The notes beneath the pieces are model-generated. The model had not been told where the DNA came from. It made no database searches and was given only the letters and a program-made list of their open reading frames with translations. This document shows positions 3,618 through 28,064 of a stretch of 64,000 nt of DNA, piece after piece. The position numbers and the translations under genes were made by a program. Source of the DNA: an uncultured Alphaproteobacteria bacterium (GTDB lineage Bacteria; Pseudomonadota; Alphaproteobacteria; UBA8366); the NCBI GenBank assembly GCA_963711215.1, contig CAVQDH010000002.1, forward strand, positions 1,110,134-1,174,133, read 5' to 3'. The first letter of the stretch is position 1, and each line of letters starts with the position of its first letter.

Positions 3618-3650
3618 GGTTCCCGCTCGATCCTGCGTGCTCAGTTATCG

Positions 3651-4667: not shown

Positions 4668-4676
4668 CGTTCAGTC

Positions 4677-6360
4677 CTACGTCTGATCCTGGTACATCCA
4701 GCTGCGAATGATCGATACGGCTTCCTCCGGATGCTTCTCGATGATGTCGCCGATCTTGCGTACCGCCGAGGCCTGAACCCGGCCCTCGACCTGGGCGATG
4801 TCGAGCATGGCTTCGAGGCCGCCGTCATCGGAAGGAACGAGCGCGCCACCGGCGCCGACCCGCGCGCCGCCGGGACCGGCAATCGCGCCGGCGATGCCGC
4901 GCTGGTTCGTCGAGGAGCGCCTGCTGGCCGTCGGCGCCGATGGCCGCCGCCGGGGCAAGCTGGCTCGGCACCGTCTCGAAGATCTTGGCGATGAGCGGCC
5001 GCACGACGAGCAGGATGATCAGGACGCCGACGACGGCGAGGATGAGGACTTCCACGATGCGCCGCAGATCCGCCGTCGAAAACCCGAGGAACAGCGGCTC
5101 GTCGACGCCGCCGACCATGCCCGGAACCTCGGCAAAGCGCATATTGACGACCTGGACGGTATCGCCCCGCTTGGCGTCGAACCCGACGGTGGATTTCACC
5201 AGCTTCTCGATGTTGGCGAGCTCTTCCTTGCTGCGCGGCTGGTAGGTGATCTTGCCGTTGGCGTCGGCCGCCACGTGGTCATTGACCAGGACCGCGACCG
5301 ACAGGCGCTTCAGGTTGCCGCCTTCGCGGATCTGCTTGCGGATCGTCTTCGAGATCTCGTAATTGACCGTTTCCTCGTTGCGGTTCGATGCCGACTGCGA
5401 TCCGCCCTCGTTGGCCGGCTTCGGCGGATTGGGAAGGTTCTGGCTCACGCTGACGGAGCCGGCGTCGGTATCCTTGCTTTGGTTGCCTTCGGTCACGGTC
5501 TGGGTCGATCGCGTGACCTGGCCGTCCGGGTCGTAGATCTCCTGGTTCGTCACGATCCGGTCGAAATCCATCTCGGCATTCACTTCGGTGCGCACGTTGC
5601 CGATGCCGACGCTGGGTTCGAGCAGCTCGTCCAGTGACCGCGTGAGGCGATCCTCGAGCGCCATCTTCTGTTGTTCGGCGTTCGCCGCCGCGAGGCTTTC
5701 CGGGCTGGAATCGCCGCCGCGGGCGAGCAGCGTGCCGCGATCGTCGAGGATCGAGATGTTTTCCGGCTTGAGGCCAGGCACCGCGGTGGCCACGAGGTGG
5801 CGGACACCATCCACCTGTCCACGGTCCAGGCGGTTGCTGCCGCGCATCTTCAGAACGATCGAGGCGCTCGCCTGCATCCGCTGCCGGCTGAACAGTTCGC
5901 GCTGCGGCAGCACCAGGTGGACGCGCGCCGCGCGGACCGACGAAATCGTCGCGATCGTCCGCGCCAGCTCGCCCTCGAGCGCGCGGACGCGATTGATGTT
6001 CTGGACGAAGCTCGACGTGCCGAGCGTCTGGTCACGGTCGAATATCTCGTAGCCGATCGACCCGTCCTGCGGCAGCCCTTGTTCGGAAAGCGCGATCCTG
6101 AGGCGGGCGACCTGGTCGGACGGGACCCGGATCTGCCGCTTGTTGCTGGTCATCTCATGCGGGATGCCCATGCTTTCAAGCTGCTGGTCGATCCGCGCGC
6201 TGTCCTCAGGGTTCAGGTTGTCGTATAGCAGAGCAAGCTCTGACGTGGACAATCGCGTCGCCAGGAAGACGAAGAAGACGATCAGGCCGATCGTCATCCC
6301 GGCCGCCGCGGCAAGACGCGCAACCCCCAGATTCCGGATTGTCTCAAGAAACGCGTTCAC
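4677..6360 (-). pseudogene. fliF: Flagellar M-ring protein FliF, reading frame broken once (possible sequencing artefact)
   Basis: ORF 4825-6360 carries the FliF N-terminus, ring domains and second TM. The conserved FliG-binding C-terminus (MLDIAQVEGRVQASAVRKIGDIIEKHPEEAVSIIRSWM) is in another frame (ORF 4677-4958). Total length is 3n+1. GTG start at 6360 preceded by AGAGGTGGG. Confidence 0.85.
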
Positions 6361-11153: not shown

Positions 11154-11597
11154 TCAGATCGACTTGTCGATGACGGCGCCGCCGTTACCGCTGTCCGACG
11201 CGCTCTGAGTCTGCGGGCCGACCACTTGCTTCAGCTGGTGGAGCAGCTCGGACGGCGGAATCGTCTCGATGACTTCCTTGGTCCGGCTGTCTACGAGCTG
11301 CAGCACGATGGTGTCGGTCTCGCGATTGAAGTTGAGCTGCGTGCGGAGGTTCGACAGGCGAAGCCTGTCGAGGGCCTGCTGCGCGGTAACGTGCTCGTCT
11401 TGCTGCTTGCCAATGCGATCCTGCCCGCGCTCGGCTGAGGGCGTCGAAACTTCCGGGCTCACGTTAACCGTCTGCGCGGCGCTGGCGAGCACGGGCTTGT
11501 TTGCCGTGTTCGCATTCGCGCTGTTCGCAGGCACCGGTTGCGGCGATGCTTGCGGCCCGGACGGCAGAACCGTCTTGGGAACGAATTGCACGTCCAT
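11154..11597 (-). CDS. flaG: Flagellar protein FlaG
   Basis: C-terminal FlaG-family signature (LNFNRETDTIVLQLVDSRTKEVIETIPPSELL). ATG at 11597 preceded by GGGAGG. The longer ORF-track start lies upstream of the mapped promoter. Confidence 0.7.
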   Translation of the reverse strand: MDVQFVPKTVLPSGPQASPQPVPANSANANTANKPVLASAAQTVNVSPEVSTPSAERGQDRIGKQQDEHVTAQQALDRLRLSNLRTQLNFNRETDTIVLQLVDSRTKEVIETIPPSELLHQLKQVVGPQTQSASDSGNGGAVIDKSI

Positions 11598-11808
11598 TGT
11601 TGCCTCCCGAACCGGCCTTCTGCCGGCTCCTGGTGGTGTGTCGCGCGCCGCGCCGACGATGCGTCGATCACGGTAGCGCTTGCGGAGCGAGGATCTCGAA
11701 AAGCAGCCGATTTCGGCAGCCGATCCCGGCTCGATCCGGACCAGGGTGCTGGGAGTGAATAGCCGAAAGCCCCAAACGGCGAATTCCCAGTCCGCGCCCT
11801 CAGATACA

Positions 11809-12094
11809 TGCAACCGGTGTGCCAGAGAGACCGTTTTCGACAAAGACGCCCAGCATCGATGGGCAAACGCGAAAATTGTGTAGCTTCTTGAGAGCGGGTC
11901 CGAATCGATACATTTAATAGGCTGTTATATCGAGTAAATATGGCGATCTTTTTGCTGACGGCGCGACGGTCGAGTTTTAACAGATTTACAATTTAAACTG
12001 CTTCAGATCAGGCGCTTACAACTTCAACTACGGTGGTACCGCCTAGGCAATTATTGCCGGCTATCTGGCGCGAATTTGCCCGGCAAAAATTGCC
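11809..12094 (-). promoter_or_regulatory. Sigma-54 promoter for flaG plus upstream palindrome pair
   Basis: Minus strand TGGCACACCGGTTGCA (11824-11809), a perfect TGGCAC-N5-TTGCA. Palindromes GGCAATTATTGCC (12046-12058) and TTGCCCGGCAAAAATTGCC (12076-12094) lie 220-270 bp upstream. Confidence 0.6.
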
Positions 12095-12219
12095 CACTCC
12101 TTCTTCAACGCCGGATCGGCACCGGGTCGAAGTCGTACGGATGGCTGCGATCATTCCGCTGGTGTCGCCCGGCGCAGATTTATTTGGAAGCGCTCGACGC
12201 TTCGCGTAAAGTCGCGCCG

Positions 12220-13047
12220 ATGGCCGACAGTACTTTGAGGCGTGCGTATAACCGTGACGGATACCTCGTCGCACGGAACGTGCTGGAACCGTCGGTGGTG
12301 GAAGGCGTGCTATCGGAATGCCGCGACGTCTTGCGCCTGCAGGCGGAGCGGCACGGAATCGCGGCGGCACCGGAAAGCGGACCGGAATTCGACGCCGCCC
12401 TGGCGGATCTGTTCCGAACATCGATCGGAAGCTATCTGGCCGCGGCCAAATTGACGCAATATCTGCCGTCGCTGCACCGGCTCGGCGCCGATGCTCCGAT
12501 CTTGCATCTCATCCGCTCGCTTGGCATCGACCGGCCGGTGATCTCGACGCGGCCCGTCGTCCACATCGTTTCCGACGATCTCAAGGTTCCCGGCGGCTAT
12601 CATCGGACGCCGCCGCACCAGGATTGGCGCAGCGTTCAGGGCAGCCTCGACGGCTTGGTCGTCTGGCTGCCGCTCGTGCCGGTGGAGGCGCAGAACAATG
12701 CCCTGGAGGTCGTGCCCGGCAGCCATCGCCTGGGGCTCTTGCCCACCGTGCCGCATCCGTTCGGGACGACCGTGACCGATCGCCGGATTGCCGATGACGC
12801 CTTTGTGCCGCTGGGCGCCCAGCCGGGTGACGCGGTGGTCTTCTCGATGTTCCTGGTCCACCGGACGGGATCGGCCACGCGTCCGGGCGTGCGCTGGGCG
12901 GTCAGCTTCCGGTACAACAATCTCGACGAGCCCAGCTTCGTCGCGCGCGACTTCCCCAATCCGTTCATCTACCGGTCGCGCGAGGATCTGCTCGTCGAGG
13001 GATTCCCGACGGCGGAAGAAGTGGATCGCGTCTTCCGTGACGAATGA
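12220..13047 (+). CDS. Phytanoyl-CoA dioxygenase (PhyH) family Fe(II)/2-oxoglutarate oxygenase
   Basis: HxD iron motif (PPHQDW), distal His (FLVHRTG), and RW.VSFRY near the C-terminus. I chose the ATG at 12220 (MADSTLRRAYNRDGY). Confidence 0.75.
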   Translation: MADSTLRRAYNRDGYLVARNVLEPSVVEGVLSECRDVLRLQAERHGIAAAPESGPEFDAALADLFRTSIGSYLAAAKLTQYLPSLHRLGADAPILHLIRSLGIDRPVISTRPVVHIVSDDLKVPGGYHRTPPHQDWRSVQGSLDGLVVWLPLVPVEAQNNALEVVPGSHRLGLLPTVPHPFGTTVTDRRIADDAFVPLGAQPGDAVVFSMFLVHRTGSATRPGVRWAVSFRYNNLDEPSFVARDFPNPFIYRSREDLLVEGFPTAEEVDRVFRDE

Positions 13048-13059
13048 GGGTGTTGCCGC

Positions 13060-13971
13060 CTAGTCCTGTTCCAGAATGGCAAGTCCCATTCCGTCCCGGC
13101 CATAGCCGTTCCCGGTATAGAGCATGTAACGATTGCCGGCGTGATCGAAGACGAAGGGATAGGCGACCAGCTCACTGTCCCACCCGGAATCGGATACGTC
13201 GATCCCCGTCAGCGCGTCCCGTCGCGTCCACGAAAGACCGTCCGGCGATTCCGCATAGCCGATGCGGTAGAGATAATCCGTGCCGCGGTGGCAATACCAC
13301 ATGCGCCACCGGTCCGTGTCGTGGATGACCGAGGGCCGGGCTATCGCGATCTCGGTGGGGCCTTCGGCGCCGATCAAGACCTTCGGATTGGTTTGCCAGA
13401 CGATGCCGTCCGTGCTCGTCGCATGGCGGATGTTGTAGTAGGGCGGCTGCTCGGGTATCGGCCATTCCGTCGCCGAAAAATACCACATGCGCCAGTTTCC
13501 GTCGGAGCCGAGGACGCACGGCGTCGAGACCAGCGTGGGATCCGCGGGGTTGCGGTCCAGCACTGCGTCCGGGCTATACCGCGCATAGGTCTGGCCGCCG
13601 TCACGCGAGATGGCGAGGCCGATGGCGACATGATAGGGATCGGGTCCGTGCTGGGACCAGCCGATGTAATAGAGCCAGCGCTCGTCGCCGCGATGCACCA
13701 GCCACGTCGCGCCGGCGCCGGTATGGTCGAAACGCCCCGGCGCGCCCGGCGCGAGAACGGGCTGCTCGGCAATACGCAGGACGTCCTGCGGTTTCGTGAT
13801 GTCGATGTCGAGCCACCCCGCGTGCGAGCGATTGTTCTCGTTGCGCGTGGTGAACCAGATGCGGACGAGATTGCCGTCAATAGGTTCGGCGAACGGCAAC
13901 AAGCTATGCGACTGCATCCACGGCCGCTGCCCGGCCGCCTTGAAAATGCGGCCCAGCTTGCGCCATCGCAT
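13060..13971 (-). CDS. Beta-propeller protein resembling the GH32/43/62/68 glycosidase clan (function unknown)
   Basis: Repeated W/Y-rich blade motifs (WLYYIGW, WRMWYFS, WRMWYCH, YMLYTGNG). Start ATG overlaps the stop of the upstream acyltransferase (ATGA at 13971-13973). Confidence 0.55.
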   Translation of the reverse strand: MRWRKLGRIFKAAGQRPWMQSHSLLPFAEPIDGNLVRIWFTTRNENNRSHAGWLDIDITKPQDVLRIAEQPVLAPGAPGRFDHTGAGATWLVHRGDERWLYYIGWSQHGPDPYHVAIGLAISRDGGQTYARYSPDAVLDRNPADPTLVSTPCVLGSDGNWRMWYFSATEWPIPEQPPYYNIRHATSTDGIVWQTNPKVLIGAEGPTEIAIARPSVIHDTDRWRMWYCHRGTDYLYRIGYAESPDGLSWTRRDALTGIDVSDSGWDSELVAYPFVFDHAGNRYMLYTGNGYGRDGMGLAILEQD

Positions 13972-14633
13972 CAGAACCCTCGCATCCGGTTGCTCGGCAC
14001 TTTCGATCGTTCCGTCGCCGTCGCCGGATAGACGCCGCCTTCCGCTGCGTCCTGCAGCAGCAAGGCGCCCGCGCCGATCAGGCATCGGGCGCCGATATTG
14101 ATGTTATCCGCCAGCGTCGCATTGACACCGATAAAGCAGTTGTCGCCGACGGTCACCGCGCCGGAAACGACGACATGGCTCGCGATGAATACGTTCGCGC
14201 CGATCGTGGCGTGATGGCCGATATGGTTGCCGCTCCACAGCGTCGTATTTTCGCCAATGGAAACAAAAGGCTGTATGGTGTTGTGCTCAAGCAGGAAGAG
14301 GTTGTCTTTCGGCTCGAATCCGCGCCACACGAAAGCCCGACTCGACACGTAGTGGGCAAAGCGGTAGCCCTTGCGCCGCGCCTCCTGAAACTTCGCCTCG
14401 CGATGCCGGTTCAGCTTGCCGAACGCCATGGCGATGAAGATGTCGCATTGATCCGGGGGAAAGTGGCGCTCCACTTCCTCGAAGGCCACGAGCGGCAGCC
14501 CCATGGCCTGATCGGTTTGCAGAAAATCCGAATCGACGGTGAAGCCGACGACCGAATAGTCGCTATCCTGGACGAAGCAGTAATGCGCGACCTCGGCGAT
14601 CTGGCCCGCACCGAAGATAACCAGCCGTTTCAT
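13971..14633 (-). CDS. NeuD/PglD-family sugar O/N-acyltransferase (left-handed beta-helix)
   Basis: N-terminal Rossmann-like MKRLVIFGAGQIAEV followed by hexapeptide repeats (IGENTTLWSGNHIGHHATIGANVFIASHVVVSGAVTVGDNCFIGVNATL). Confidence 0.8.
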   Translation of the reverse strand: MKRLVIFGAGQIAEVAHYCFVQDSDYSVVGFTVDSDFLQTDQAMGLPLVAFEEVERHFPPDQCDIFIAMAFGKLNRHREAKFQEARRKGYRFAHYVSSRAFVWRGFEPKDNLFLLEHNTIQPFVSIGENTTLWSGNHIGHHATIGANVFIASHVVVSGAVTVGDNCFIGVNATLADNINIGARCLIGAGALLLQDAAEGGVYPATATERSKVPSNRMRGF

Positions 14634-14691
14634 GCGCGGACTATATCAGCGGCTGGCGTGCCCGATAAGTGTCGACGTAAACTGCCGCGCC

Positions 14692-16767
14692 ATGTCGAGC
14701 CCGATCGAAATGTTGCAGGCGGCGCTGAGGTTCCAGCAGCGGGGGGAGCACGCGGCGGCGGCCCGTGTATTGCGCCAGGTGCTGACGATCGATGCGGGAC
14801 ATCCGGATGCCCTGCATCTGCTGGGACTATGCCTGCACGCGCAAGGTGATAGCGCCGAAGCGTTAAAGCAGATTCGCAAGGCGATCGAGGTCAAGCCGTC
14901 GGAGCCGATGTTCCACACCAACGCCGGCGTCGTCGCCGTCGCGATGGGGGACGTCAAGGCCGGCATTACGCATTATAGCCGCGCGCTCGCGCTCGATCCG
15001 GCCTATGTCGACGCTTGCAACAATCTCGGAGTCGCGCTGCAGCGTATGGGGCTTTTCAATGAAGCGGCGACGGCATTCCGCCGGGCCGTCGAGCTTTGCC
15101 CGGACGCGCCGGGCCCGCTCGTCAATCTCGGCAACACCCTGCGGGCGCTCGGCCAACCGGCGGACGCGATCGCGTACTACCGGCGCGCCCTTGCGATTGC
15201 GCCCGATATGGCGGAAGCGCACAACAATCTCGGCAACGCCTTGAAGACGCAGCGGCGCTACGACGACGCCATCGAAAGTTATGACAAGGCGTTGAAACTC
15301 CGGCCCGATTTTTCCGAGGCGCATTTCAACCGCGGGCTCGTTCTTGCGGCTCGCGGCGATCCGGAAGGGGCGGTGGATGCGCTCACGCGGGCGATCGCGA
15401 TCCTCCCGGATCCGCGATATCGCCTCGCGCGGGCCGGCATCCTGCCGGTCATGCCCCGCTCGCTCTCGGATATGGCGGAATGGCGCGAGCGTTTTGCGCA
15501 TGAAATCGCCGCGCTGGCTTCCGAAAAAATCACGGTGCCGGGAACGCCGCTCGAGACACCGGTGATGAATTTCTATCTCGCCTATCACGGTGAGAACGAC
15601 CGCGAGCTCATGGTGCAGCTGTCCCGGCTGTTCCGGCAGGCCTATCCGTCGCTGGAATGGACGGCGCCGCATTGCCAGGACGCAGCATTGCGGGAGCGCG
15701 GGCCGCGCGTCCGTCTTGGGTTTTTCTCCACCTTCCTGTACGACCATGCGGTGGCGTGGAGCATCCGCGGATTTCTCGAAGCGCTGCCGAAGGACCGTTT
15801 CGAGGTCATCCTGTTCACCGTGCGGCAGCCCGAAGGCGACGTTATGCCGGAGATCATGGCCGCGGCAGACAAGGTCATCATGCTGCCGCAGTCGATCGAT
15901 CGGGCACGCGGCCTCATCGCCGAAGCGCGTCTCGATGTCTTGACCTTTGCGGACATCGGGATGGAGAGCTTGAGCTATGCGCTCGCGCATGCGCGATTGG
16001 CGCCGGTGCAATGCGCGACCTGGGGGCATCCGGTGACCACCGGCATCTCGACGGTGGATTATTACATCTCGAGCGATTTCGCCGAGCCGGACGACGCGGC
16101 CGAGCAGTACAGCGAGCGGCTTGTCCGTCTCTCCGGGATCCAATGCACCTACCGCCGGCCTTCCTTCCCGGCCGATCCGAAGCCGCCCGCGCCCGATCTG
16201 CCCGCCGGTGCGACGATCTATCTTTGTCCGCAGAGCCTGTTCAAGATCCATCCGGACATGGACGGGCCGCTGTCGGAAATCCTGCGCCGGGACCCCGCGG
16301 GCGTCATGCTGTTCTTCGAGGGAACGGACAAGGTCATCACCGGCCGCCTGCAGGAACGCTGGCGCGAGACCTTCGCGGATGTGGCCGCGCGCGTACGCTT
16401 CCTGCCGCGCGTGACGGTCGATCGTTTCCTGGAAACCATGGCGTCCGCCGATGTCTTGCTGGACACATGGCCGTTCGGCAGCGGCAACACGAGCTACCAG
16501 GGCTTTGCCGCCGGTATTCCCATCGTGACCTTTCCGGGAAAGTATTTGCGCGGGAGGGGAACGCTGGCGCATTACCGTCACATGGGATTCACCGATTGCG
16601 TCGCGGACACGCCGGAATCCTATGTGGATATTGCCGTCCGCCTCGGCACCGACAGCGAATTTCACCGCCGGATTTCGGCCATGATCCGCGAGCGCTGCCA
16701 CGTGCTGTTCGATGACGAGCGCGTCGGGGCCGACCTCGTGCGGTTCCTCCTGGAGGTGACGGCGTGA
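14692..16767 (+). CDS. TPR + GT41 (O-GlcNAc-transferase/SPINDLY-like) glycosyltransferase, copy A
   Basis: About 8 TPRs, then a catalytic region collinear with eukaryotic OGT (LAPVQCATWGHPVTTGISTVDYYISSDFAEPDDAAEQYSERLVRL; LDTWPFGSGNTSYQGFAAGIPIVTFPG; YVDIAVRLGTDSEF). I chose the start at 14692 (MSSPIEML). Confidence 0.85.
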   Translation: MSSPIEMLQAALRFQQRGEHAAAARVLRQVLTIDAGHPDALHLLGLCLHAQGDSAEALKQIRKAIEVKPSEPMFHTNAGVVAVAMGDVKAGITHYSRALALDPAYVDACNNLGVALQRMGLFNEAATAFRRAVELCPDAPGPLVNLGNTLRALGQPADAIAYYRRALAIAPDMAEAHNNLGNALKTQRRYDDAIESYDKALKLRPDFSEAHFNRGLVLAARGDPEGAVDALTRAIAILPDPRYRLARAGILPVMPRSLSDMAEWRERFAHEIAALASEKITVPGTPLETPVMNFYLAYHGENDRELMVQLSRLFRQAYPSLEWTAPHCQDAALRERGPRVRLGFFSTFLYDHAVAWSIRGFLEALPKDRFEVILFTVRQPEGDVMPEIMAAADKVIMLPQSIDRARGLIAEARLDVLTFADIGMESLSYALAHARLAPVQCATWGHPVTTGISTVDYYISSDFAEPDDAAEQYSERLVRLSGIQCTYRRPSFPADPKPPAPDLPAGATIYLCPQSLFKIHPDMDGPLSEILRRDPAGVMLFFEGTDKVITGRLQERWRETFADVAARVRFLPRVTVDRFLETMASADVLLDTWPFGSGNTSYQGFAAGIPIVTFPGKYLRGRGTLAHYRHMGFTDCVADTPESYVDIAVRLGTDSEFHRRISAMIRERCHVLFDDERVGADLVRFLLEVTA

Positions 16768-18945
16768 GCGAGGTCGGCTTGCTGCTCGCCGAGGCGCAGC
16801 AGCAATTCAAGGCCGGACGAACCGCCGACTCCTATGCGACATGCGGCGAGGTGCTCAAGCGCGATCCGGAAAATTCGGCGGCGCTCGAGCTGATGGGGGT
16901 GCTGGCGAGCCGGCTGGGGGAGATCGAGACCGCCGTGCAGATGCTGGAACGCGCGGCAAAGCAGCGGCCCGGCGAGGCGCGTCTTCTCGCCAATCTCGGC
17001 GCCGTGTACCGGGCGGCCGGGCGGGTCGAGGAGGCGGAGGCGCGCTATCGCGACGCAATCGCCCTCGATCCGGACAGCCGTGCCGGCGCGGTTCAATCTG
17101 GCGAATCTGCTGATGGCACGCGGCGAGTTCGACGCCGCCTTGCGCGAATATGTGGCGATCGTCGAGCGCGATCCATCGAATGCCGGCGCCCTGAACAACA
17201 TGGCGGCAGTCCTCGAGGCCAAGGGCCGTTTCGAAGAGGCGGAAAGCGTTTATCGCGCGCTTCTTGATGCCAATCCGGAGGATGCCGGCGCGTCCAACAA
17301 CCTCGGCGCACTGCTCCGGGACATGGGGCGCATGCCGGAAGCGATCATGCATTACCGGCGAGCGATTGCTCTCGACCCGAAGGCAGTCGAGCCGCGCAAC
17401 AATCTGGGCGTGGCGCTGCTCGACACCGGCGATTTCGAAGCCGCGGTCGACTGTATTCGCGACGCCTTGGCGCTTGGCGGCGACGTCGCCGCGGTCCATG
17501 AAAATCTCGGCAACGCGCTGCGCAAGCTCGGAGAGACGGACGAAGCGGCTCGGGCTTACGAAAAGGCGCTGGCGCTCGGCAACGCGGCCGGCGTGCGCTT
17601 CAAGCTGGCGACACTGCTTCCGGCCGTGGCCGGTTCGACCGACGAGCTCGATCGCTGGCGGCGGCGGATGGCCAAGGCCGTGGATGCGCTCGCCGACGCG
17701 GGCTTCTCACTGCGCGATCCGTATGCGGAAGTGGGGGTCACTACCTTCAACCTGTCCTATCACGATACGAACAACCGCGACCTGCAGGCCTCGCTTGCGC
17801 AGGCCTATCTCCGTGCCTGCCCGACGTTGGCTTTTACGGCGCCGCATTGCGCGGCACCACGGCCATCAGGCGCGGCGCCGCTCAAGGTCGGATTCATTTC
17901 GCGCCAGTTCGCGAACAATGCCGTCGGCTGGTGCTTTCACGGCGTGCTGCGCCACATGCCGCGCGACGATATTTCGGTGACGGCCCTGCGGTTCGGCGAG
18001 TTGGACGATCCCTTGTGGCGGCGCATCGCCGCCGACGTGGACGCGGCGGTGGTCCTGCCGGCGTCGCTGGCGTTTGCGCGCGCGCGCATCGCCGAGCTGG
18101 AATTGGACGTGCTCGTCTATACGGATATCGGCATGGAGCCGCTCACCTACTTCCTCGCCTTCGCGCGGCTCGCTCCGTTGCAGTGCGTGCTGGGCGGTCA
18201 CCCCGATACGCTCGGCATTCCGGCGATCGATCTCTTCATCAGCAGCGACCTGCAGGAGCCGGCCGACGCGGAGGAGCATTACAGCGAAAAACTCATTCGC
18301 TTGCCGGGGGCGCCGACCTATTACGACCGCCCGGAGGTGCCCGCGCCGCTCAAGCCGCGCGCGGCGTTCGGCCTGCCCGAGGAAGGGGCGATCTATTTCT
18401 GCGCCCAGACGCTGATCAAGATCCATCCCGAGATGGACGCGCTCTTTGCCGGCATTCTTGCGGGCGATCCGGAGGGGCTGCTTGTCCTGCCGGCGGGCTA
18501 CAATCCGCGGCTGGCCGAGCGTCTCAAGGCGCGCTTCGCACGAAGCTTGGGGCCTTTGGCGGAGCGGGTCCGCTTCTTGCCGGCGATGAGCCATCTCGAT
18601 TTCATGAACGTCATGGCGCTGGCCGATGTTTCGCTCGATACCCGGCCGTTCGGCGGCGGCAACACGAGCTGGCAGGCGATCGCCGCGGGCACGCCCATCG
18701 TGACGTGGCCGGGCCGGTTCCTGCGCGGCCGCTACACGCAAGCGCTTTATCGCCTGGCCGGCGCGGAAGACACCATTGTCGGCAGCGCCGGGGCCTATGT
18801 CGCGATGGCGCTGCGGCTGGCGCAAGATCGCGATTTCCGGTCCGCCGTGCAGGCCCGGATCGCCGCCGGGGCCGGACGTATCTTCGCCGACAGGACGCAT
18901 GTCGCGGCTTTGCGCGATACGTTCATCCGATACGCCAAGTCTTAG
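16764..18945 (+). pseudogene. TPR + GT41 (OGT-like) glycosyltransferase, copy B, one frame break (possible artefact)
   Basis: ORFs 16764-17267 and 17080-18945 join as ...AIALDPDS|VPARFNLANLL once a C is removed from the CC run at 17077-17078. Length is 3n+1. GT41 motifs (LQCVLGGHPDTLGIPAIDLFISSDLQEPADAEEHYSEKLIRLPG; LDTRPFGGGNTSWQAIAAGTPIVTWPG). GTG start overlaps the copy A stop (GTGA). Confidence 0.8.
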
Positions 18946-19592
18946 ATCTGCGAGCGAATATCGCCGGCGATGATTTCGGCGGGCTCGGTCAATATGCGGT
19001 GCAGGATGCTCCACCGGGAGCCACGCCATTCCGGCAGGAAGCGAAGCTCTATGCCGTGGTGGCCGAACGCCGCGGCATCGTAGAGCGTCCGACCGCCCTC
19101 GAGGTTGACGTAGCGGGTGGCGCCCAGCGCCCGCGCGGCCGCCAGCACGCGGTCTTGCCCATGCAGCGACGGATCGAGGCCGAGCGTGCTGGTGCGGACT
19201 GTCTCAAACGGCAGGTCCAGCGTCCGGCAACAAAAGCCGAGCAGCTTCTCCAGATAGTCGCAGACCGTTCCGTCAAGGCGAAGCATCGCGTCGCAAAGCG
19301 GATGCCGGAAGCTTTGCAGCACCGGGAAGCGCCGAGACGAAGCCTGAAGCCGTTCCAGGGCATCGTCCGCGAACCGCAGGTCGCTGATGCGCGCGTCGAC
19401 CGCCGCCCGCTGCAGCGGCAGGGTAAGCCAGGCGGGGTCTCCCGCGGCGTTGGGCAGGCGGTTGCGATGCACCCATCCGCGGCGCGGGAATTGCACGCAA
19501 TCGAAGAGGGCGACGCGATCGGCGGCTGCGAAAAGCCGGAAATATCCAGCATAGGGCAGGAAATACGGTTGCATCACCGCGACGGTCGTCAT
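18942..19592 (-). CDS. WbqC-family protein (sugar-modification locus protein)
   Basis: N-terminal MQPYFLPYAGYFRL motif typical of the WbqC family; 216 aa. Confidence 0.75.
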   Translation of the reverse strand: MTTVAVMQPYFLPYAGYFRLFAAADRVALFDCVQFPRRGWVHRNRLPNAAGDPAWLTLPLQRAAVDARISDLRFADDALERLQASSRRFPVLQSFRHPLCDAMLRLDGTVCDYLEKLLGFCCRTLDLPFETVRTSTLGLDPSLHGQDRVLAAARALGATRYVNLEGGRTLYDAAAFGHHGIELRFLPEWRGSRWSILHRILTEPAEIIAGDIRSQI

Positions 19593-19691
19593 GCCGGAAG
19601 CCTACCAATTCCAGGAGAGGAAAACGAAGATTCCATCGCGTAAAGCTGCGGTCAAATCCCGTCTTCATATTGCCCGCGCATCCGGGTATTG

Positions 19692-21459
19692 ATGCGGTCG
19701 ATGTCAGGGGCCTTGCAAGACACGTTGCGGCGCGCGCTTGCGCTGCGGGAAGCGGGAAAGACGCACGAGGCGGAAGCCCTGTGCGACGCGGTCCTCACGC
19801 TCGACCCCGAGAATGCGGACGGATGGCAGATTGTCGGCCTCGTCCGTCTCGACCAGGGCATGAACGCCGCCGCCCGCGATGCGCTGGCGAAGGCCGCTGC
19901 CCTCGCGCCCGAGATAGCCGGCAATCACGTCAATTTGGCGACGGCGCTGCAACGGCTGGGGAAGCCGGAGCAGGCGATCCGGAGTCTCGATCGGGCGATC
20001 GCCTTGCAGGATGATTTGCCGGAGGCGCATTACAATCTCGGCAACGTGCTGTTGCAGGCCGGCCGTCCGGCGGAAGCCGAAGCCGCGTTCGAGCGGGCGG
20101 CGATGCTGCGTCCCGGCTATGCGGAAGCGCTCAACAATCTGGGCCTTCGGGCCAAGGAACGCGGCGACGCGGAAGCGGCAATCGATTATTTCCGGCGGGC
20201 GCGGGATGCCGCGCCCGGCTACGCGCCGGCATGGTCCAATCTTTGCGGTGTGCTCCTGGACCGCGGCCGAACGGTCGAGGCTATCGAAGCCGGGCGGCGT
20301 GCCGTGCTTCTGTCTCCGGGCAGCGCCGAAGGCGCATTACAATCTCGGCAATGCGTTCGCCGCCGCGCCGATCCCGGCCGAAGCCGCGGCCTGCTATCGC
20401 CGGGCGCTGCAGGCCGATCCCGCGTATGCCGATGCGTTCGTCAATCTGGGGGTTGCGCTGATGCATCTGGGCGTGTGCGACGAGGCAATCGCCGCGCTGG
20501 ATCATGCGCTCGTTCTCGATCCCGACCTGGCCGAAGCGAACTGGAACAAGGCGCTCGCGCTGCTGCTGTCGGGCCGGCTCGGTGAAGCCTGGGATCTGTA
20601 TGAATGGCGCTGGCGGGCCGTGAAGGATCTGACCTGGCCGAGGATCGACCGGCCGTTGTGGGACGGCGGTGACGGGGCCGGGCGTACGCTGCTGATCCGT
20701 TGCGAGCAGGGCTACGGCGATGCCATCCAGTTCGCCCGCTATCTGCCGCTGGTGCGCCAGCGGAACTGGCGTGTCGTGGTCGAATGTCCGCCGAAGCTGG
20801 AGCGCCTGTTCCGGGCGAGCGGGCTCGCCGATACGGTAATCCCCTTCGGCGCCGAGCGGCCGGCCTTCGACAGCTGGCTGCCGATCATGAGCCTGCCGCG
20901 CGCCTTCGGGACGGAGATCGCCTCAATTCCACAGACATGTCCTTATCTGCAGGCACAGCCCGCGGCGGCAGCGCGGAGCGGCGACCGCCGAACGAAGGTT
21001 GGGATCGTCTGGCAAGGAAGTCTGAGCAACGATCGAGGTCGGTTCAGGTCTTGCGCGCTGGCGGATTTGGCGCCGTTGCGGAACATATCCGGCATATCGC
21101 TTTATAGCCTGCAGGCGCAGCTGTTGGGTGAAGAGCGCGACCGGCTCCGCGCGTTCTCGATTCCCGACCTGGAGACCGGACTGACCGATTTCGCGGAGAC
21201 CGCGGTTGTCCTTCAATCGCTCGATCTGGTGATCACGGTCGACACGGCGATGGCGCACCTCGCCGGCGCCTTGGGCCGTCCCGTCTGGGTGCTGCTGTCG
21301 GCCTTTCCGGATTGGCGATGGCTGCTCGACCGGGACGATAGTCCGTGGTATCCGACCATGCGCTTGTTTCGTCAGCGGCGCATCGGCGATTGGGCGTCGG
21401 TCGTGGATGACGTGGCTTCCGCTCTCGCCGACGATTGCGCGGGAAGGGGTGTTCGATGA
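19692..21459 (+). pseudogene. TPR + GT9-like (heptosyltransferase-fold) protein, copy A, one frame break (possible artefact)
   Basis: ORFs 19689-20585 and 20011-21459 join as SPGSAE|AHYNLGNAF once a G is removed at 20331-20332. Length is 3n+1. C-domain motifs: GYGDAIQFARYLPLV, VGIVWQG, LVITVDTAMAHLAGALGRPVWVLL, WYPTMRLFRQ. Confidence 0.75.
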
Positions 21460-21505
21460 TGCGTTGGCATGCAACGGCATTGCCTGAAAGGGGCGGCGGC
21501 TGACG

Positions 21506-22606
21506 ATGGCGGCACCGGCAATCCCCGTGATGGCGCCCCGGCTGCCCGATGCCGCGGCCCTCATGCCCTATCTCGAGGAAATCGACGTAAACCGCTGGTA
21601 CAGCAATTTCGGGCCGCTGTTGCGGCGGTTCGAGGCGCGGCTGGCGGACCATTTCGACCTGCCCAAGGACGGCGTGGCCTGCGTCGGCAATTGCACGGTG
21701 GGGCTGATGCTCGCCCTCATGGCGGTTGCGCGGGAGCGCGGCGGCTACTGCATCATGCCGTCCTTCACCTTCGTGGCATCGGCCCATGCCGTGCTGGCGG
21801 CCGGCCTCATTCCGCTGTTCATCGACGTGGATTCGCAGTCCTGGACGGTGACCCCGGCGAGCGTGACCGAGGCCGTTCGGTCGGCCGACCGGCCGGTGGC
21901 CGCTGCGCTGGTCGTGTCGCCTTTCGGCGCGCCGGTCGACGTTGCCGCGTGGGACGAATTTGCCGCGCACAGCGGCATCCCCGTCGTGATTGATGCGGCG
22001 GCGGGATTCGATGGCGCAAACGCCGGGAAAGCGCCCCTCGTCATCAGCTTCCACGCGACCAAGGTGATGGGGACGGGCGAGGGAGGGGCCGTACTGAGCC
22101 GCGACGCGGCGGTGATCCGATCGATCGCCGCAGCCTCGAATTTCGGTTTCCACGACAGCCGCGAGGCGAAGGTGGCCGGATTCAACGGCAAGCTCAGCGA
22201 GTACAGCGCCGCAGTCGGCCTTGCGTCATTGGATGCCTGGCCGGCAACGCGCAGGATGTTGGCGCAGCTCACCCGGCTCTACGCCGATGCCTTGAACGGG
22301 ATCGGCAATATCAGCCTGTCGCCGGCCTTCGGCGCCGGCTGGGTCAGCTCGACATGCAACATCGCCTTCGACCGCCCGGTCGTGGAGGCGGTCATGGGCG
22401 CGCTCGCCGACGCCGGGATCGATTCGCGGCAGTGGTGGAGCAAGGGCTGCCACCGGGAGCCTGCGTTTGCCGGCTTTCCCCATCGCGACCTTTTCGTCAC
22501 CGACGATCTCGGCCGGCGCGTTCTCGGCCTGCCGTTCCACGAAGCGCTCAGCGAGCAGGATATCGAGCGCGTCGTCGCCATCGCCGCGTCCGCGGCGCAA
22601 CGATAG
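21506..22606 (+). CDS. DegT/DnrJ/EryC1/StrS-family PLP-dependent sugar aminotransferase
   Basis: 366 aa. Family-typical N-terminus and a putative PLP-lysine context (ISFHATKVMGTGEGG). Confidence 0.85.
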   Translation: MAAPAIPVMAPRLPDAAALMPYLEEIDVNRWYSNFGPLLRRFEARLADHFDLPKDGVACVGNCTVGLMLALMAVARERGGYCIMPSFTFVASAHAVLAAGLIPLFIDVDSQSWTVTPASVTEAVRSADRPVAAALVVSPFGAPVDVAAWDEFAAHSGIPVVIDAAAGFDGANAGKAPLVISFHATKVMGTGEGGAVLSRDAAVIRSIAAASNFGFHDSREAKVAGFNGKLSEYSAAVGLASLDAWPATRRMLAQLTRLYADALNGIGNISLSPAFGAGWVSSTCNIAFDRPVVEAVMGALADAGIDSRQWWSKGCHREPAFAGFPHRDLFVTDDLGRRVLGLPFHEALSEQDIERVVAIAASAAQR

Positions 22607-22667: not shown

Positions 22668-22782
22668 GGCAAGTCTTGCCGGGCAAAACGGACTTCGTTA
22701 ACAGGCCCGTTCAGCCCTCATATATAAAAACATATGTAAATCAAATAATTAACCCGCCACGCCGCGCTGGCACGCCAGTTGC
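22668..22782 (+). promoter_or_regulatory. Enhancer-IHF-sigma-54 promoter module for flagellin 1
   Basis: GGCAAGTCTTGCCGGGCAA (22668-22686). IHF consensus AATCAAATAATTA (22739-22751). TGGCACGCCAGTTGC (22768-22782), a perfect -24/-12 element. Confidence 0.65.
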
Positions 22783-22880: not shown

Positions 22881-23712
22881 ATGGCTACTCCAAAGATCAA
22901 CCTGAGCGCAGGTGTACGAGCCAATCTGCTCACGCTGCAGAACACGACCAAACTGATCAGCACGGTGCAGACCCGGCTGTCCACCGGACTCAAGGTCAAT
23001 TCGGCCATCGACGATGCGAACGCGTATTTTACCGCGAAGGCGCTCAACAATCGTTCGGACGACCTGAACGCACTGAAATCGAATATCGATCTGTCCATCA
23101 GTGCCCTTCAGGGAGCGATCCATGGCATCGAGTTCGATCACCGATCTGGTCCAGCAGGCAAAGGGCCTGGTCAACACGGCGAAGGCGACGGGCGATACCG
23201 CCGAGCGTTCGCTGCTCGCCGTCCAGTTCAACGCGCTGTTGGTGCAGATCGACAACCTGGCGAACGACGCCAACTTCAACGGCTCGAACCTCATCAGGTC
23301 GACACCCGATAACCTTCAGGTCGACTTCAACGAGGACAGCACCAGCAGCATCACCATCACCGGCCTCGACTCGACGACGGCATCGACGGGCCTGGACATC
23401 ACCGAGGCGGGCAACAATTTTTCCAGCCTCACGGATATCAATTTCTCGATCACGCAGCTGAACAGCGCGCTGACCGAGCTGCGCACCAATGCCTCGACCC
23501 TCGGCTCCAACAATACCGTGCTGCAGACGCGCCTTGACTTCACCGCCAACCTGTCGACGACGCTGACGGAAGGCGCCGGCAAGCTGACCCTGGCGGATCT
23601 CAACGAGGAAAGCGCCAACCTGCTGGCCTTGCAGACCCGGCAGCAGCTTGGCCTGAACTCGCTTGCGCTGGCCGCGCAGAGCGAGCGGCAGATCCTGAGC
23701 CTGTTCGGTTAA
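22881..23712 (+). pseudogene. Flagellin 1, one frame break (possible artefact)
   Basis: ORFs 22881-23312 and 23101-23712 align end to end with flagellin 2. Removing one T from the TT run at 23133-23134 gives AIHGIESITDLVQQ versus AINGINSITELVQQ in the paralogue. Length is 3n+1. Confidence 0.85.
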
Positions 23713-23906: not shown

Positions 23907-23921
23907 TGGCATGGGGGTTGC
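23907..23921 (+). promoter_or_regulatory. Sigma-54 promoter for flagellin 2
   Basis: TGGCATGGGGGTTGC (GG-N10-GC), about 125 nt upstream of the ATG at 24048. Confidence 0.55.
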
Positions 23922-24047: not shown

Positions 24048-24875
24048 ATGGCTGATAAAATTGCACTATCAGCAGGCGTGCGGTCTAACCTTCTTAGTCT
24101 GCAGGTCACCACCGCCAGCATCAACACGACGCAGCAGCGCCTGTCGACGGGCCTCAAGGTCAATTCGGCCCTCGATAACGCGAGTGCGTACTTTACGTCG
24201 GTTGCGTTGAGCAATCGGTCGTCGGACCTGGGTGCGCTCAAGTCCGATATCGACCTGTCGGTCAGCGCGATCGAATCGGCGATCAACGGTATCAACTCGA
24301 TCACCGAGCTGGTGCAGCAGGCCAAAGGTCTTGCAAACCAAGCGAAGGCGACCGGCGATACGAGTGAAAAGTCGACCCTGGCGACGCAGTTCAATTCGCT
24401 GCTCGACCAGATCGACGCCGTCGCCAATGACGCCAGCTTCAACGGCACGAACCTGATCCAGGCGACGCCGGACAATCTGACGGTCAACTTCAACGAAGAC
24501 AACACCAGTAACCTGACGATCACTGGTCTCGACTCGACGACGGCCACTACCGGCCTTTCGATTGGTGTGGCGACCAATGCCTTTGCGGATAGCGCTTCGG
24601 TCGACTTGGCGTTGACGTCGCTCAACAGTGCGCTCACGACGCTGCGTACCAACGCGGCGACGCTGGGTTCCAACAGCTCGGTTCTTCAGACTCGTCTGAC
24701 CTTCACGTCGAATCAGGTGAATACCCTCGACACGGGCTCAGGCAAGCTGACGCTGGCGGACCTGAACGAGGAGAGCGCCAACCTGCTGGCTCTGCAGACG
24801 AGACAGCAGCTCGGCATCAACTCCTTGTCTCTGGCTTCGCGAAGCGAGCGGTCGATCCTGGCCCTCTTCGGTTAA
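24048..24875 (+). CDS. Flagellin 2 (short alphaproteobacterial type, 275 aa)
   Basis: Conserved flagellin N-terminus (LSAGVRSNLLSLQ...RLSTGLKVNSALDNAS) and C-terminus (ADLNEESANLLALQTRQQLGINSLSLASRSERSILALFG). GGGAGA RBS. Confidence 0.95.
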   Translation: MADKIALSAGVRSNLLSLQVTTASINTTQQRLSTGLKVNSALDNASAYFTSVALSNRSSDLGALKSDIDLSVSAIESAINGINSITELVQQAKGLANQAKATGDTSEKSTLATQFNSLLDQIDAVANDASFNGTNLIQATPDNLTVNFNEDNTSNLTITGLDSTTATTGLSIGVATNAFADSASVDLALTSLNSALTTLRTNAATLGSNSSVLQTRLTFTSNQVNTLDTGSGKLTLADLNEESANLLALQTRQQLGINSLSLASRSERSILALFG

Positions 24876-25073: not shown

Positions 25074-25466
25074 ATGCCGCTAAAGATCGTGTTGAAACCG
25101 GGGGAGAAGGTCGTCATCAATCAGGCGGTTCTTCAAAACGGACGCGAGAAGACAGAGATAATCGTACAAAATAAAGCAAGCATTCTCCGAGAGCGGGATA
25201 TAATGGTCGAAAAGGAGGCCAATAGTCCGGCGAAACGGATTTATTTTATTGTTCAGATGATTTATATGTTTCCGAATAAGGAACGTGAATACCAGGAAAA
25301 ATTCCATAAATTCACCAAGGAATTCGTGAATGCTGTGCCGAGTTCTCTGCCTTTGATAATGGATATCGGAAAGCAGATCATCGCAGGCAATGTCTATGGG
25401 GCGCTGAAGCTGTGCCGGAAGCTGGTTAAGTATGAGGACGAGGTTCTAAAACATGCAACAAGGTAA
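25074..25466 (+). CDS. flbT: Flagellin synthesis repressor FlbT
   Basis: MPLKIVLKPGEKVVINQAVLQNGREKTEIIVQNKASILRERDIM matches the FlbT family N-terminus. The gene is markedly AT-rich. Confidence 0.85.
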   Translation: MPLKIVLKPGEKVVINQAVLQNGREKTEIIVQNKASILRERDIMVEKEANSPAKRIYFIVQMIYMFPNKEREYQEKFHKFTKEFVNAVPSSLPLIMDIGKQIIAGNVYGALKLCRKLVKYEDEVLKHATR

Positions 25467-25896
25467 CAAGAGCCAAGCATATCGTTCATCGCAGCGGCTG
25501 GGTTCGAACGCTCGGGATACGGAAGCACAGGCCCTGTTGGAGGCTGCGCGGAAGCTGGACGCGGTGGTCGGTGGCGACGACCAGGATGCCTATCGCACGG
25601 CGTTGCGGCAGAACTGGCGCCTTTGGACGATCATTCAGGCGGATGTCTCCGGCGAAGATTCACCGCTGCCCGATGAGATTCGTCAGAATATCCTTAGCCT
25701 GAGCGTCTTTATCGATAAGCATACGGTCAGTGCCCTCGCGGAGCCGAGCGGGCGAAAGCTCCGGGTGCTGATCGACATCAACCGTCATATCGCCGGCGGC
25801 TTGATGGCTAATTTCAATGCGCAAGCCGACGTTTCGGCGGAACCGGCGCAACCCGCGCCCGCCCGCCCGCGCGTGGATGGTGATATCATCGCCTGA
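25453..25896 (+). CDS. flaF: Flagellin synthesis regulator FlaF
   Basis: FlaF-family motifs (EAQALLEAARKL, ALRQNWRLWTIIQADV, NILSLSVFIDKHT). Overlaps the flbT end by 14 nt. Confidence 0.85.
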   Translation: MQQGNKSQAYRSSQRLGSNARDTEAQALLEAARKLDAVVGGDDQDAYRTALRQNWRLWTIIQADVSGEDSPLPDEIRQNILSLSVFIDKHTVSALAEPSGRKLRVLIDINRHIAGGLMANFNAQADVSAEPAQPAPARPRVDGDIIA

Positions 25897-28016: not shown

Positions 28017-28064
28017 ATTTCCGTCCTGCGGACGCAACGGCCCGGACTCGCGCCTGTGACGACG

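Follow-up and report, generated by a model that had tools for sequence, protein, structure and literature searches.

The described systems closest to the locus studied here are the viosamine islands of Pseudomonas, the FlmG system of Caulobacter and Brevundimonas, the flagellin islands of enterobacteria and the lipid-carrier (Arn/Gtr-like) clusters of Xanthomonas and Pseudomonas. The locus lies in a 64-kb stretch of DNA (positions 1,110,134 to 1,174,133 of contig CAVQDH010000002.1, assembly GCA_963711215.1; hereafter the window, with positions counted from its first letter) from an uncultured alphaproteobacterium. It consists of eight genes with flaG on one side and two flagellin genes on the other, that is, of glycosyltransferase and sugar-modification genes embedded in a flagellar locus beside the flagellins. 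With a probability of roughly 60%, we read it as a flagellin glycosylation island of two modules, namely a soluble cassette that would tailor a sugar and a set of cytoplasmic glycosyltransferases (GTs) with tetratricopeptide repeats (TPRs) that would attach it. Domains were called with Pfam and NCBIfam profiles, structures are AlphaFold (AF2) models searched with Foldseek, and L-numbers denote the contigs or loci used for comparison.

The viosamine islands of P. syringae and P. aeruginosa, with the aminotransferase gene vioA, the acetyltransferase gene vioB and the methyltransferase gene vioM, provide a flagellin sugar that is not a nonulosonate (PMC3927599). The genes compared from P. syringae pv. 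tabaci and from the a-type island of P. aeruginosa PAK were vioA/orfA, vioB/orfE, vioM, vioT/orfN, vioS, vioR and acp. The island in the window resembles them in a flagellin sugar that here is predicted to be other than a nonulosonate and to come from a deoxythymidine diphosphate (dTDP)-4-amino-4,6-dideoxyhexose, in its DegT-family aminotransferase and VioB/NeuD-family N-acyltransferase, in its several large soluble GTs and in presumably drawing precursor genes from elsewhere; the methyltransferase is shared by close relatives of the window only. Unlike them, it has no acyl-chain module for a 3-hydroxybutyryl group, made up of VioS, VioR plus an acyl carrier protein (ACP), with no genes for ketoacyl-ACP synthase (KAS) III, ketoreductase or ACP in the island, and has WbqC, a beta-propeller protein and a PhyH dioxygenase instead. 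Its GTs are of TPR-GT41 and TPR-GT9-like type in place of the ~1170-aa VioT/OrfN, and its host is alphaproteobacterial, with short, Caulobacter-like flagellins of ~275 aa.

In Caulobacter, the TPR domain of FlmG is a flagellin-binding module, and flmG and flmH are adjacent (CCNA_01523/01524), with the pseB/C-like, neuB and flmC/D genes scattered far away (PMC7591256). The window resembles the Caulobacter and Brevundimonas system in its alphaproteobacterial background, short flagellins and flaF/flbT genes, in a sugar synthesis that is, or in the window would be, partly encoded elsewhere, and in encoding a soluble protein with N-terminal TPRs and a C-terminal GT domain beside an acetyltransferase and, in the window, also beside the flagellins. 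Two of its GTs resemble FlmG in size and two-domain soluble layout, FlmG being compared by description and not by sequence. Unlike this system, in which FlmG transfers pseudaminic acid (Pse) or legionaminic acid (Leg), no nonulosonate genes were seen in the window; there are four TPR-GTs, of which two clearly belong to GT41, and the acyltransferase is a NeuD/PglD-type beta-helix, where FlmH is described as PseH-like.

The flagellin islands of enterobacteria fall into 42 types, with GT41 in ~14-15 of these, DegT in 242 strains out of 307, and NeuD-type acetyltransferases (De Maayer and Cowan 2016, PMC4875605). They too lie in the flagellar locus, combine GT41 (SPINDLY/COG3914), DegT and NeuD-type acetyltransferases and mostly have no nonulosonate genes, and the methyltransferases that they carry were found here in relatives only. 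Unlike the present island, they belong to a different phylum-level lineage with another flagellin type, their GT41 enzymes mostly form fusions with methyltransferase domains, and those islands are predictions; the text of that paper has no mention of WbqC, phytanoyl, dioxygenase or glycoside hydrolase. A preliminary description of this stretch, made from its letters, had contrasted the locus with known flagellin islands that it took to centre on Pse or Leg synthesis, a premise contradicted by the viosamine (PMC3927599) and enterobacterial (PMC4875605) islands. Its list of eight genes and their domains between flaG and the two flagellins was confirmed by the Pfam and NCBIfam profiles; the limits that it drew (12220-22606) enclose these eight but leave out a fourth TPR-GT at 25959-28037.

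The lipid-carrier clusters of Xanthomonas arboricola (CP011256) and Pseudomonas sp. TH39 have WbqC, the acyltransferase family (55% identity) and the propeller (~51%) in common with the island. They also carry a methyltransferase, as do close relatives of the window; DegT is part of the Xanthomonas cluster and was not found in the flanks of the Pseudomonas one. Judging from the shared protein families, their sugar product is presumably the same as or similar to that of the island. Unlike the island, they contain GT2, GtrA/EamA and GT-C membrane proteins, often with Wzm/Wzt, which points to periplasmic decoration of polysaccharides, where the window has cytoplasmic TPR-GTs beside flagellin.

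TPR-bearing glycosyltransferases and the flagellins

Two plus-strand genes, GT41a (14692 or 14710-16767) and GT41b (16764-18945), encode TPR proteins with a GT41 domain (PF13844 at 73.6 and 72.2 bits, cutoff 25). At least five TPRs were found in GT41a, and a 100%-identical database protein of 685 aa starts at 14710. In a search of the PDB, its catalytic domain matched the T. terrenum OGT (5djs, E 4e-26), human OGT, SPINDLY, XcOGT and HMW1C, and in the alignment with human OGT the His of FGNHPTSH and the Lys of NQLYKIDP are conserved. On these profile and alignment matches, both GT41 domains are genuine GT-B homologues of the OGT type with N-terminal TPRs. Pseudomonas FgtA (PA1091) was considered as a GT41 precedent and dropped, the literature assigning it to GT2 (PMC11833859).

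The other two transferases are TPR-GT9a (19701-21459, plus strand; PF01075 at 27.9 bits, cutoff 22) and TPR-GT9b (25959-28037, minus strand, 692 aa; TPRs and PF01075 at 24.3 bits), which are 35% identical. TPR-GT9b is part of the island's system although it is located past flaF; compared with L087, a nearly identical Joint Genome Institute (JGI) metagenome contig, it has 15 bp near 26748 duplicated in tandem and in frame. Copies of the two proteins measure 563-692 aa (TPR-GT9a has 585 aa in L087 and 563-586 aa in the relatives L001 and L002) and consist of N-terminal TPRs and a C-terminal domain of ~290 aa. The GT9 label is thin, with ~36-42 aligned residues covering PF01075 profile positions 165/170-205 of 247, around VDTAxAHLAGALGxPVW, and a profile search of the PDB with this domain found no relative at E<=1. 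At E<=1e-3, the C-terminal domain (query 25962-26840) retrieved 39,104 clusters at 50% identity, and its best 150 matches were solely giant proteins of 1000-3100 aa with 3-6 tandem copies of the domain. None of the four TPR-GTs has a transmembrane segment, and the NCBIfam search gave no FlmG match.

The flagellins follow on the plus strand. Flagellin 1 (22881-23712) has 276 aa after repair of a frameshift at ~23134, over which its tblastn match is split between two frames, and flagellin 2 (24048-24875) has 275 aa, with Flagellin_N at residues 16-139 and Flagellin_C at 191-274. About 50 residues separate the two domains in the window's flagellins. The preliminary description had called their centres rich in Ser and Thr, and the counts agree with it: 19-20 Ser/Thr per 60-residue centre in both, within a range of 17-20 when L001 and L087 are included, and 12-13 in L008, a marine lineage. 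The peptide that it quoted, NEDNTSNLTITGLDSTTATTGLS, belongs to flagellin 2, and its counterpart in flagellin 1 is NEDSTSSITITGLDSTTASTGLD. Between the two domains, flagellin 2 has the central motif FNEDxTSxLTITGLDSTTATTG, which in the form FNEDxTSxLTITGLD(S/A)TT(A/G)(T/S)xG is conserved from lineages of 46% guanine plus cytosine (GC) to lineages of 65% GC. The NxS/T sequons of the exposed segment differ between paralogues and lineages while the Ser/Thr residues are kept, which makes O-linkage likelier than N-linkage of the N-glycosyltransferase (NGT) type. N-glycosylation at NxS/T by an NGT/HMW1C-like enzyme looks improbable on this ground and because the OGT-type matches are the stronger ones (95 against 43-47 bits).

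The predicted sugar-tailoring cassette

The aminotransferase gene (21506-22606, plus strand) encodes a pyridoxal-phosphate (PLP)-dependent sugar aminotransferase of the DegT/DnrJ/EryC1 family (PF01041, 219 bits) with the PLP lysine motif SFHATK. Among NCBIfam models it scored best with the DesI type (181.6 bits, cutoff 650), followed by LegC (114) and PseC (109), each below its own cutoff, and in the PDB it matched 3ju7 (188 bits), DesI 2po3 (143 bits) and perosamine synthetases. DesI and the perosamine synthetases are C4 aminotransferases of 4-keto-6-deoxyhexoses. The acyltransferase (13971-14633, minus strand) is a left-handed beta-helix N-acyltransferase of the NeuD/PglB/VioB family with Hexapep and PglD_N domains; it belongs to the VioB/PglD/NeuD family by TIGR03570 (172.2 bits, cutoff 160.8), and its relatives in the PDB are PglD, PerB and VioB, enzymes that add an acyl group to an amine at C4.

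The WbqC-family protein (18942-19592, minus strand; PF08889, 120.1 bits against a cutoff of 21.3) was modelled with a mean predicted local distance difference test (pLDDT) score of 94.1. Its best fold match in the PDB is BshC 4wbd, a weak one (E 0.01, prob 0.97, TMq 0.42), and the next matches, which include class I tyrosyl-tRNA synthetases, are far weaker (E 0.26 upwards, prob <=0.3). BshC is the cysteine-adding enzyme of bacillithiol synthesis. From this resemblance one may tentatively propose that WbqC is an ATP-dependent ligase joining a carboxylate or an amino acid to the sugar amine; it is possibly a nucleotidyltransferase-like enzyme instead. We take wbqC to be named from the E. coli O121 gene cluster, and the link to the N-acetylglycyl-amino-sugar of O121 serves as a lead only. 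E. coli O121 carries amide-linked N-acetylglycine (review, PMC7685785). The family is large (2665 database hits in this analysis), and our literature search turned up no functional study of WbqC.

The PhyH-family Fe(II)/2-oxoglutarate dioxygenase (12220-13047, plus strand; PF05721 at 64 bits, cutoff 22) keeps the metal triad in its HxD motif (PPHQDW) and distal His (LVHRTG); its matches to the PDB relatives PtlH, PhyH and SnoN are weak. Relatives of this protein accompany the WbqC cassette in non-flagellar loci (L017, L019, L046, L049, L055, L065, L067 and L083), so its target is probably the sugar or an acyl group of the sugar rather than flagellin. The further oxidation suggested in the preliminary description would accordingly concern that sugar or acyl group. 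The 304-aa product of 13060-13974 (minus strand; pLDDT 94.1) is a five-bladed beta-propeller with a GH130/GH43-like fold. Its best Foldseek matches were BT_0996 (5mui, E 1e-13, template modelling (TM) score 0.75) and GH130 beta-1,2-mannoside phosphorylases; over these structures, E ranged from 1e-13 to 1e-10 and TM scores from 0.73 to 0.75, at 16-17% identity. It has no Pfam match at E<=0.01 and stands outside GH130 by sequence (29 bits with the NCBIfam mannobiose phosphorylase model, cutoff 450). The label "glycosidase-like" given to it previously therefore stands for the modelled fold and not for membership in a sequence family, the resemblance being at fold level only. There are 3821 homologues in the database at E<=1e-5, with ~50-51% identity in Xanthomonas and Pseudomonas. 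The propeller, acyltransferase and WbqC genes are the three of the eight island genes on the minus strand, and the start of the propeller gene and the stop of the acyltransferase gene overlap by 4 bp.

The same cassette recurs far beyond flagellar loci. When the open reading frames (ORFs) within 8 kb of WbqC were clustered for 83 loci from many phyla, DegT was present at 53, a methyltransferase/GT2 cluster at 49, the acyltransferase at 33, the propeller at 25 and the epimerase/4,6-dehydratase family at 18. Less frequent were Wzm/Wzt (nine loci), the PhyH cluster (eight), RmlA-like proteins and sugar N-formyltransferases (seven each), and AMP-binding enzymes and PMT_2 (GT-C) proteins (five each). 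Four of six scored members of the dehydratase cluster (L023, L047, L055 and L075) passed the NCBIfam equivalog cutoff for dTDP-glucose 4,6-dehydratase (RmlB), and two of three scored RmlA-like proteins (L055 and L075) passed that for RmlA. The partners of the cassette elsewhere, GT2, GtrA/EamA-like, GT-C (PMT_2/DUF6077) and Wzm/Wzt proteins, are absent from the window, which has the TPR-GTs instead, and no membrane or lipid-carrier component was found in the island.

Among the surveyed loci we also observed a recurrent and apparently uncharacterised operon, WbqC - GT2 - methyltransferase - NeuD/PglD acyltransferase - beta-propeller (- EamA/GtrA - DegT - GT-C), often beside Wzm/Wzt. It was seen in L003, L005 and ~25-50 of the loci L011-L086, from Proteobacteria, Bacteroidota, Cyanobacteria, Planctomycetota, Acidobacteriota and Actinomycetota. 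At L012, L013, L014 and L021, a non-flagellar module brings TPR-GT41 and WbqC together with two further proteins, one of 509-571 aa with a metallo-beta-lactamase fold and one of ~337 aa without a Pfam match.

From the RmlA and RmlB genes adjoining the cassette elsewhere, the closeness of DegT to DesI and the perosamine synthetases and that of the acyltransferase to PglD, PerB and VioB, we infer that the cassette tailors a dTDP-4-keto-6-deoxyhexose. We lean, if only slightly, towards a dTDP-amino-dideoxyhexose as its product, and rather more clearly towards flagellin as the target. The first module would comprise DegT, the NeuD/PglD/VioB-type N-acyltransferase, WbqC, the propeller and PhyH, joined in close relatives by an S-adenosylmethionine (SAM)-dependent methyltransferase. 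Its input would most likely be dTDP-4-keto-6-deoxyglucose, the product of RmlA and RmlB, whose genes would lie in another part of the genome. In the likely order of steps, the sugar would be aminated, probably at C4, the amine N-acylated and the product decorated further: WbqC may attach a carboxylate or an amino acid, and PhyH may oxidise the sugar or the acyl group, by hydroxylation or in another way. The second module would be the four cytoplasmic transferases, two GT41-type and two GT9-like, whose N-terminal TPRs, like the TPR domain of FlmG, probably bind flagellin that is still unfolded and awaits export. These enzymes would move the sugar or sugars onto Ser/Thr of the short stretch that is exposed between flagellin's N-terminal and C-terminal helices, and may work sequentially, building an oligosaccharide, or at separate sites. 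The earlier suggestion of an amino-sugar made with DegT, acyltransferase and WbqC and attached by soluble TPR-bearing GTs fits this gene content.

Conservation beside flagellins and rival readings

A survey of whether the gene set accompanies flagellins in other genomes, suggested in the preliminary description, found the gene order kept in L001 and L002 and island genes beside flagellins also in L007-L010 and L087. The contigs L001 and L002 were reached through GT41a homologues, and L007-L010 by searching the species representatives of GTDB with an alignment of WbqC proteins. The GT41a proteins of L001 and L002 are 57-58% identical to that of the window, and island proteins overall 57-69%. 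Their gene order is flaG, methyltransferase, PhyH, propeller, acyltransferase, GT41, GT41, WbqC, TPR-GT, DegT, flagellin, flagellin, flbT, flaF, TPR-GT. The SAM-dependent methyltransferase between flaG and PhyH (L001, 6801-7520; L002, 6804-7523; both on the minus strand) is absent from the window, where the gap between these genes (11598-12219) is a 620-bp intergenic stretch; since close relatives have this enzyme and the window does not, the glycan may differ by one methyl group between lineages.

In the metagenome-assembled genomes L007-L010 from GTDB (labelled Rhodospirillaceae, Rickettsiales and Alphaproteobacteria), island genes likewise stand beside flagellins. L008 (46.5% GC) has three GT41 genes, a HAD hydrolase in the island and flaG at its far end. 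Its third GT41 (3366-5054, plus strand), between the TPR-GT9 gene and flaF, is more OGT-like (PF13844, 313 bits), and its HAD-family hydrolase lies at 16858-17589 on the plus strand. The transferase set varies between lineages. A TPR-GT between flaF and flgL is present in L001, L002, L008, L009, L010 and L087, that is, in each relative whose contig reaches that far. As the synteny is kept across divergent relatives (contigs of 46-65% GC) and this TPR-GT is found in every relative that extends to it, the association of island and flagellin is, from the contigs compared, old and maintained.

Caulobacter gives the precedent for another reading, in which the island would be that portion of a Leg or Pse system which lies next to the flagellins: there, flmA/B (CCNA_00233/4), flmC/D (CCNA_02946/7) and neuB (CCNA_02961) lie far, by locus tag, from the flmG/flmH pair (PMC7591256), and the Leg genes of Brevundimonas are likewise spread over several loci. 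DegT would then be of the LegC or PseC type, the NeuD/PglD-type acyltransferase of the LegH type and the TPR-GT9-like proteins an FlmG class using cytidine monophosphate (CMP)-Leg or CMP-Pse, with dehydratase, NeuB and CMP-transferase encoded elsewhere. No sugar 4,6-dehydratase, NeuB-type synthase or CMP-transferase was found among the likely genes called in the 64 kb, and no scanned gene of the window has a Pfam match to the Maf domain (MAF_flag10/DUF115). Because the Pse genes of Caulobacter lie away from flmG, a nonulosonate pathway elsewhere in this genome is possible, and the earlier statement that there is no such pathway holds for the 64 kb only. The layout of TPR-GT9a and TPR-GT9b does match that of FlmG (596 aa; TPR 1-313, GT 309-596), DegT does match the LegC and PseC models, and TIGR03570 includes NeuD- as well as PglD-type enzymes. 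We still consider this reading unlikely. DegT scores higher with DesI-type enzymes, in NCBIfam and in the PDB, than with LegC or PseC. NeuB, CMP-transferase, hydrolysing epimerase and Maf are missing not only from the window but also from the annotated flanks of L001, L002, L003, L005 and L087 (those of L001, L002 and L087 likewise show no UDP/GDP-GlcNAc 4,6-dehydratase), and the precursor genes that adjoin the cassette, where there are any, are RmlA and RmlB. The missing dehydratase, noted in the preliminary description, is for the same reason no proof of a dehydratase-free pathway: the window has none, but RmlA and RmlB do adjoin the cassette at other WbqC loci. FlmG has been reported only from Caulobacterales (bioRxiv 10.1101/2023.12.03.569772), a label that none of the relatives found here bears, and a Leg or Pse system would leave WbqC, the propeller, PhyH and the two GT41 enzymes unexplained. 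Quite improbable, in our view, is that the genes serve lipopolysaccharide, capsule or another glycoprotein, with the TPR-GTs modifying other proteins and the flagellins nearby by chance, for instance after horizontal insertion of a cassette. This would agree with the overwhelming occurrence of the cassette in O-antigen or lipid-carrier contexts and with the combination of TPR-GT41 and cassette without flagellin genes in L012-L014 and L021, but it is opposed by the flagellin linkage kept over lineages of 46% to 65% GC, by an island GC equal to that of its flanks (0.62-0.68), by the lack of all membrane and lipid-carrier components at the island and by the fourth TPR-GT, fixed between flaF and flgL in each relative seen.

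Three genes are interrupted in the assembly by a single extra base each, GT41b at ~17073, TPR-GT9a at ~20329 and flagellin 1 at ~23134, none of them at a long homopolymer. Three such frameshifts inside 6.1 kb could mean that the island is decaying, the three genes being true pseudogenes and the system non-functional in this strain. Every gene is, however, full length after removal of one base, and there are no further signs of decay. Without the extra base, GT41b becomes an ORF of 726 aa, the length of its L001 orthologue, of which residues 1-103 correspond to 16764-17072 and residues 104-720 to 17074-18924. L087, 99.4% identical to the window over 10.7 kb, carries unbroken copies of TPR-GT9a and flagellin 1 (276 aa) and differs by exactly one base at each of the two breaks. 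Breaks of the same kind occur at a similar density outside the island, in fliR (~51880), in mlrC (~55920) and twice in a FAD oxidoreductase gene (~57450 and ~58000). With these, the window has no fewer than seven single-base frameshifts, spread over unrelated genes, or apparently ~1 indel error per 9 kb. Since similar breaks hit these genes and the L087 copies are intact, the frameshifts look like assembly indels and not island decay; pseudogenisation specific to the island was rejected, and decay of the system is very improbable.

Several points weigh against a flagellin glycosylation island fed by a dTDP-sugar. A near-identical intact copy was compared for TPR-GT9a and flagellin 1 but not for GT41b. 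The RmlA and RmlB genes lie outside the window, and the dTDP route is drawn from other genomes. Neither DegT nor the acyltransferase reaches an equivalog cutoff, and a UDP- or GDP-linked 2-acetamido sugar of the Leg, Pse or bacillosamine type is a possible alternative substrate. The fold match of WbqC to BshC is weak. Finally, flagellin need not be the sole target, because TPR-GT41 and the cassette also occur together away from flagellin genes, as at L012-L014 and L021.

Flagellar setting and significance

The window (GC ~64%) holds a flagellar cluster of alphaproteobacterial type with a complete regulon, spanning 115 to ~53.3 kb, after which come the housekeeping genes recA and alaS. Before the island lie flbD, motA, fliN, fliH, fliG, fliF, flgE, flgD, fliK and flaG; the last (11154-11597, minus strand; PF03646; 50% identical to flaG of L001) forms the left border of the island. 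After it come the two flagellins, flbT and flaF (25074-25896, plus strand; PF07378 and PF07309), which are regulators of flagellin translation and secretion, the fourth TPR-GT, flgL, flgK, a rod-binding protein gene, flgI, fliX, dksA, flgH, flgA, flgG, flgF, fliL and fliM, and further on cheY- and cheZ-like genes, motB, fliP, fliO, flgB, flgC, fliE, fliQ, fliR and flhB. Directly 3' of motB, a gene at 43950-47498 (plus strand) encodes a protein of 1182 aa with weak TPR and AMIN-like matches. The window contains 11 matches to the sigma54-type motif TGGC-N7-TTGC, where 3.1 would be expected. Matches lie upstream of flagellin 1 (22768-22782, plus strand), of flagellin 2 (23907-23921, plus strand), of flaG (TGGCACACCGGTTGC, 11810-11824, minus strand) and possibly of PhyH (11941-11955, plus strand), a distribution that fits regulation of the FlbD/FliX type, which is also encoded in the window.

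How much of this is new can be stated in parts. We found no characterised case in the literature of a flagellin-glycan role for WbqC, the propeller or PhyH, and the earlier suggestion of an uncharacterised chemistry stands to that extent, although its contrast with known islands was overstated. Apparently uncharacterised are WbqC, propeller and PhyH as members of a pathway for a flagellin glycan, alphaproteobacterial TPR-GT41 enzymes as candidates for flagellin transfer, and the coupling of what seems to be a re-used O-antigen-type cassette to cytoplasmic protein GTs. A bolder proposal, which we regard as speculative, is that TPR-GT41 proteins form a further class of dedicated flagellin O-glycosyltransferase beside Maf, FlmG and the GT2 type, that the cassette makes a new amino-sugar with WbqC as a BshC-like amide ligase, and that it has shifted from decorating polysaccharides by way of lipid carriers to cytoplasmic protein glycosylation. 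An example of such a sugar would be an aminoacylated, hydroxylated 4-amino-4,6-dideoxyhexose.

Flagellin glycans have an effect on how filaments assemble, on motility, on phage attachment and on recognition by the immune system. If the proposed role of the island is right, TPR-guided cytoplasmic glycosylation of flagellin would reach past Caulobacterales and past nonulosonic acids, and GT41 enzymes would gain a defined bacterial protein substrate. The mass of flagellin would then offer a tractable, soluble readout for three so far unassigned components of a sugar pathway, WbqC, the propeller and PhyH, at least two of which are widespread and which would also take part in decorating O-antigens, in Xanthomonas and Pseudomonas as well as in many further phyla. 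The island would also show how one sugar cassette can be plugged into differing delivery machineries.

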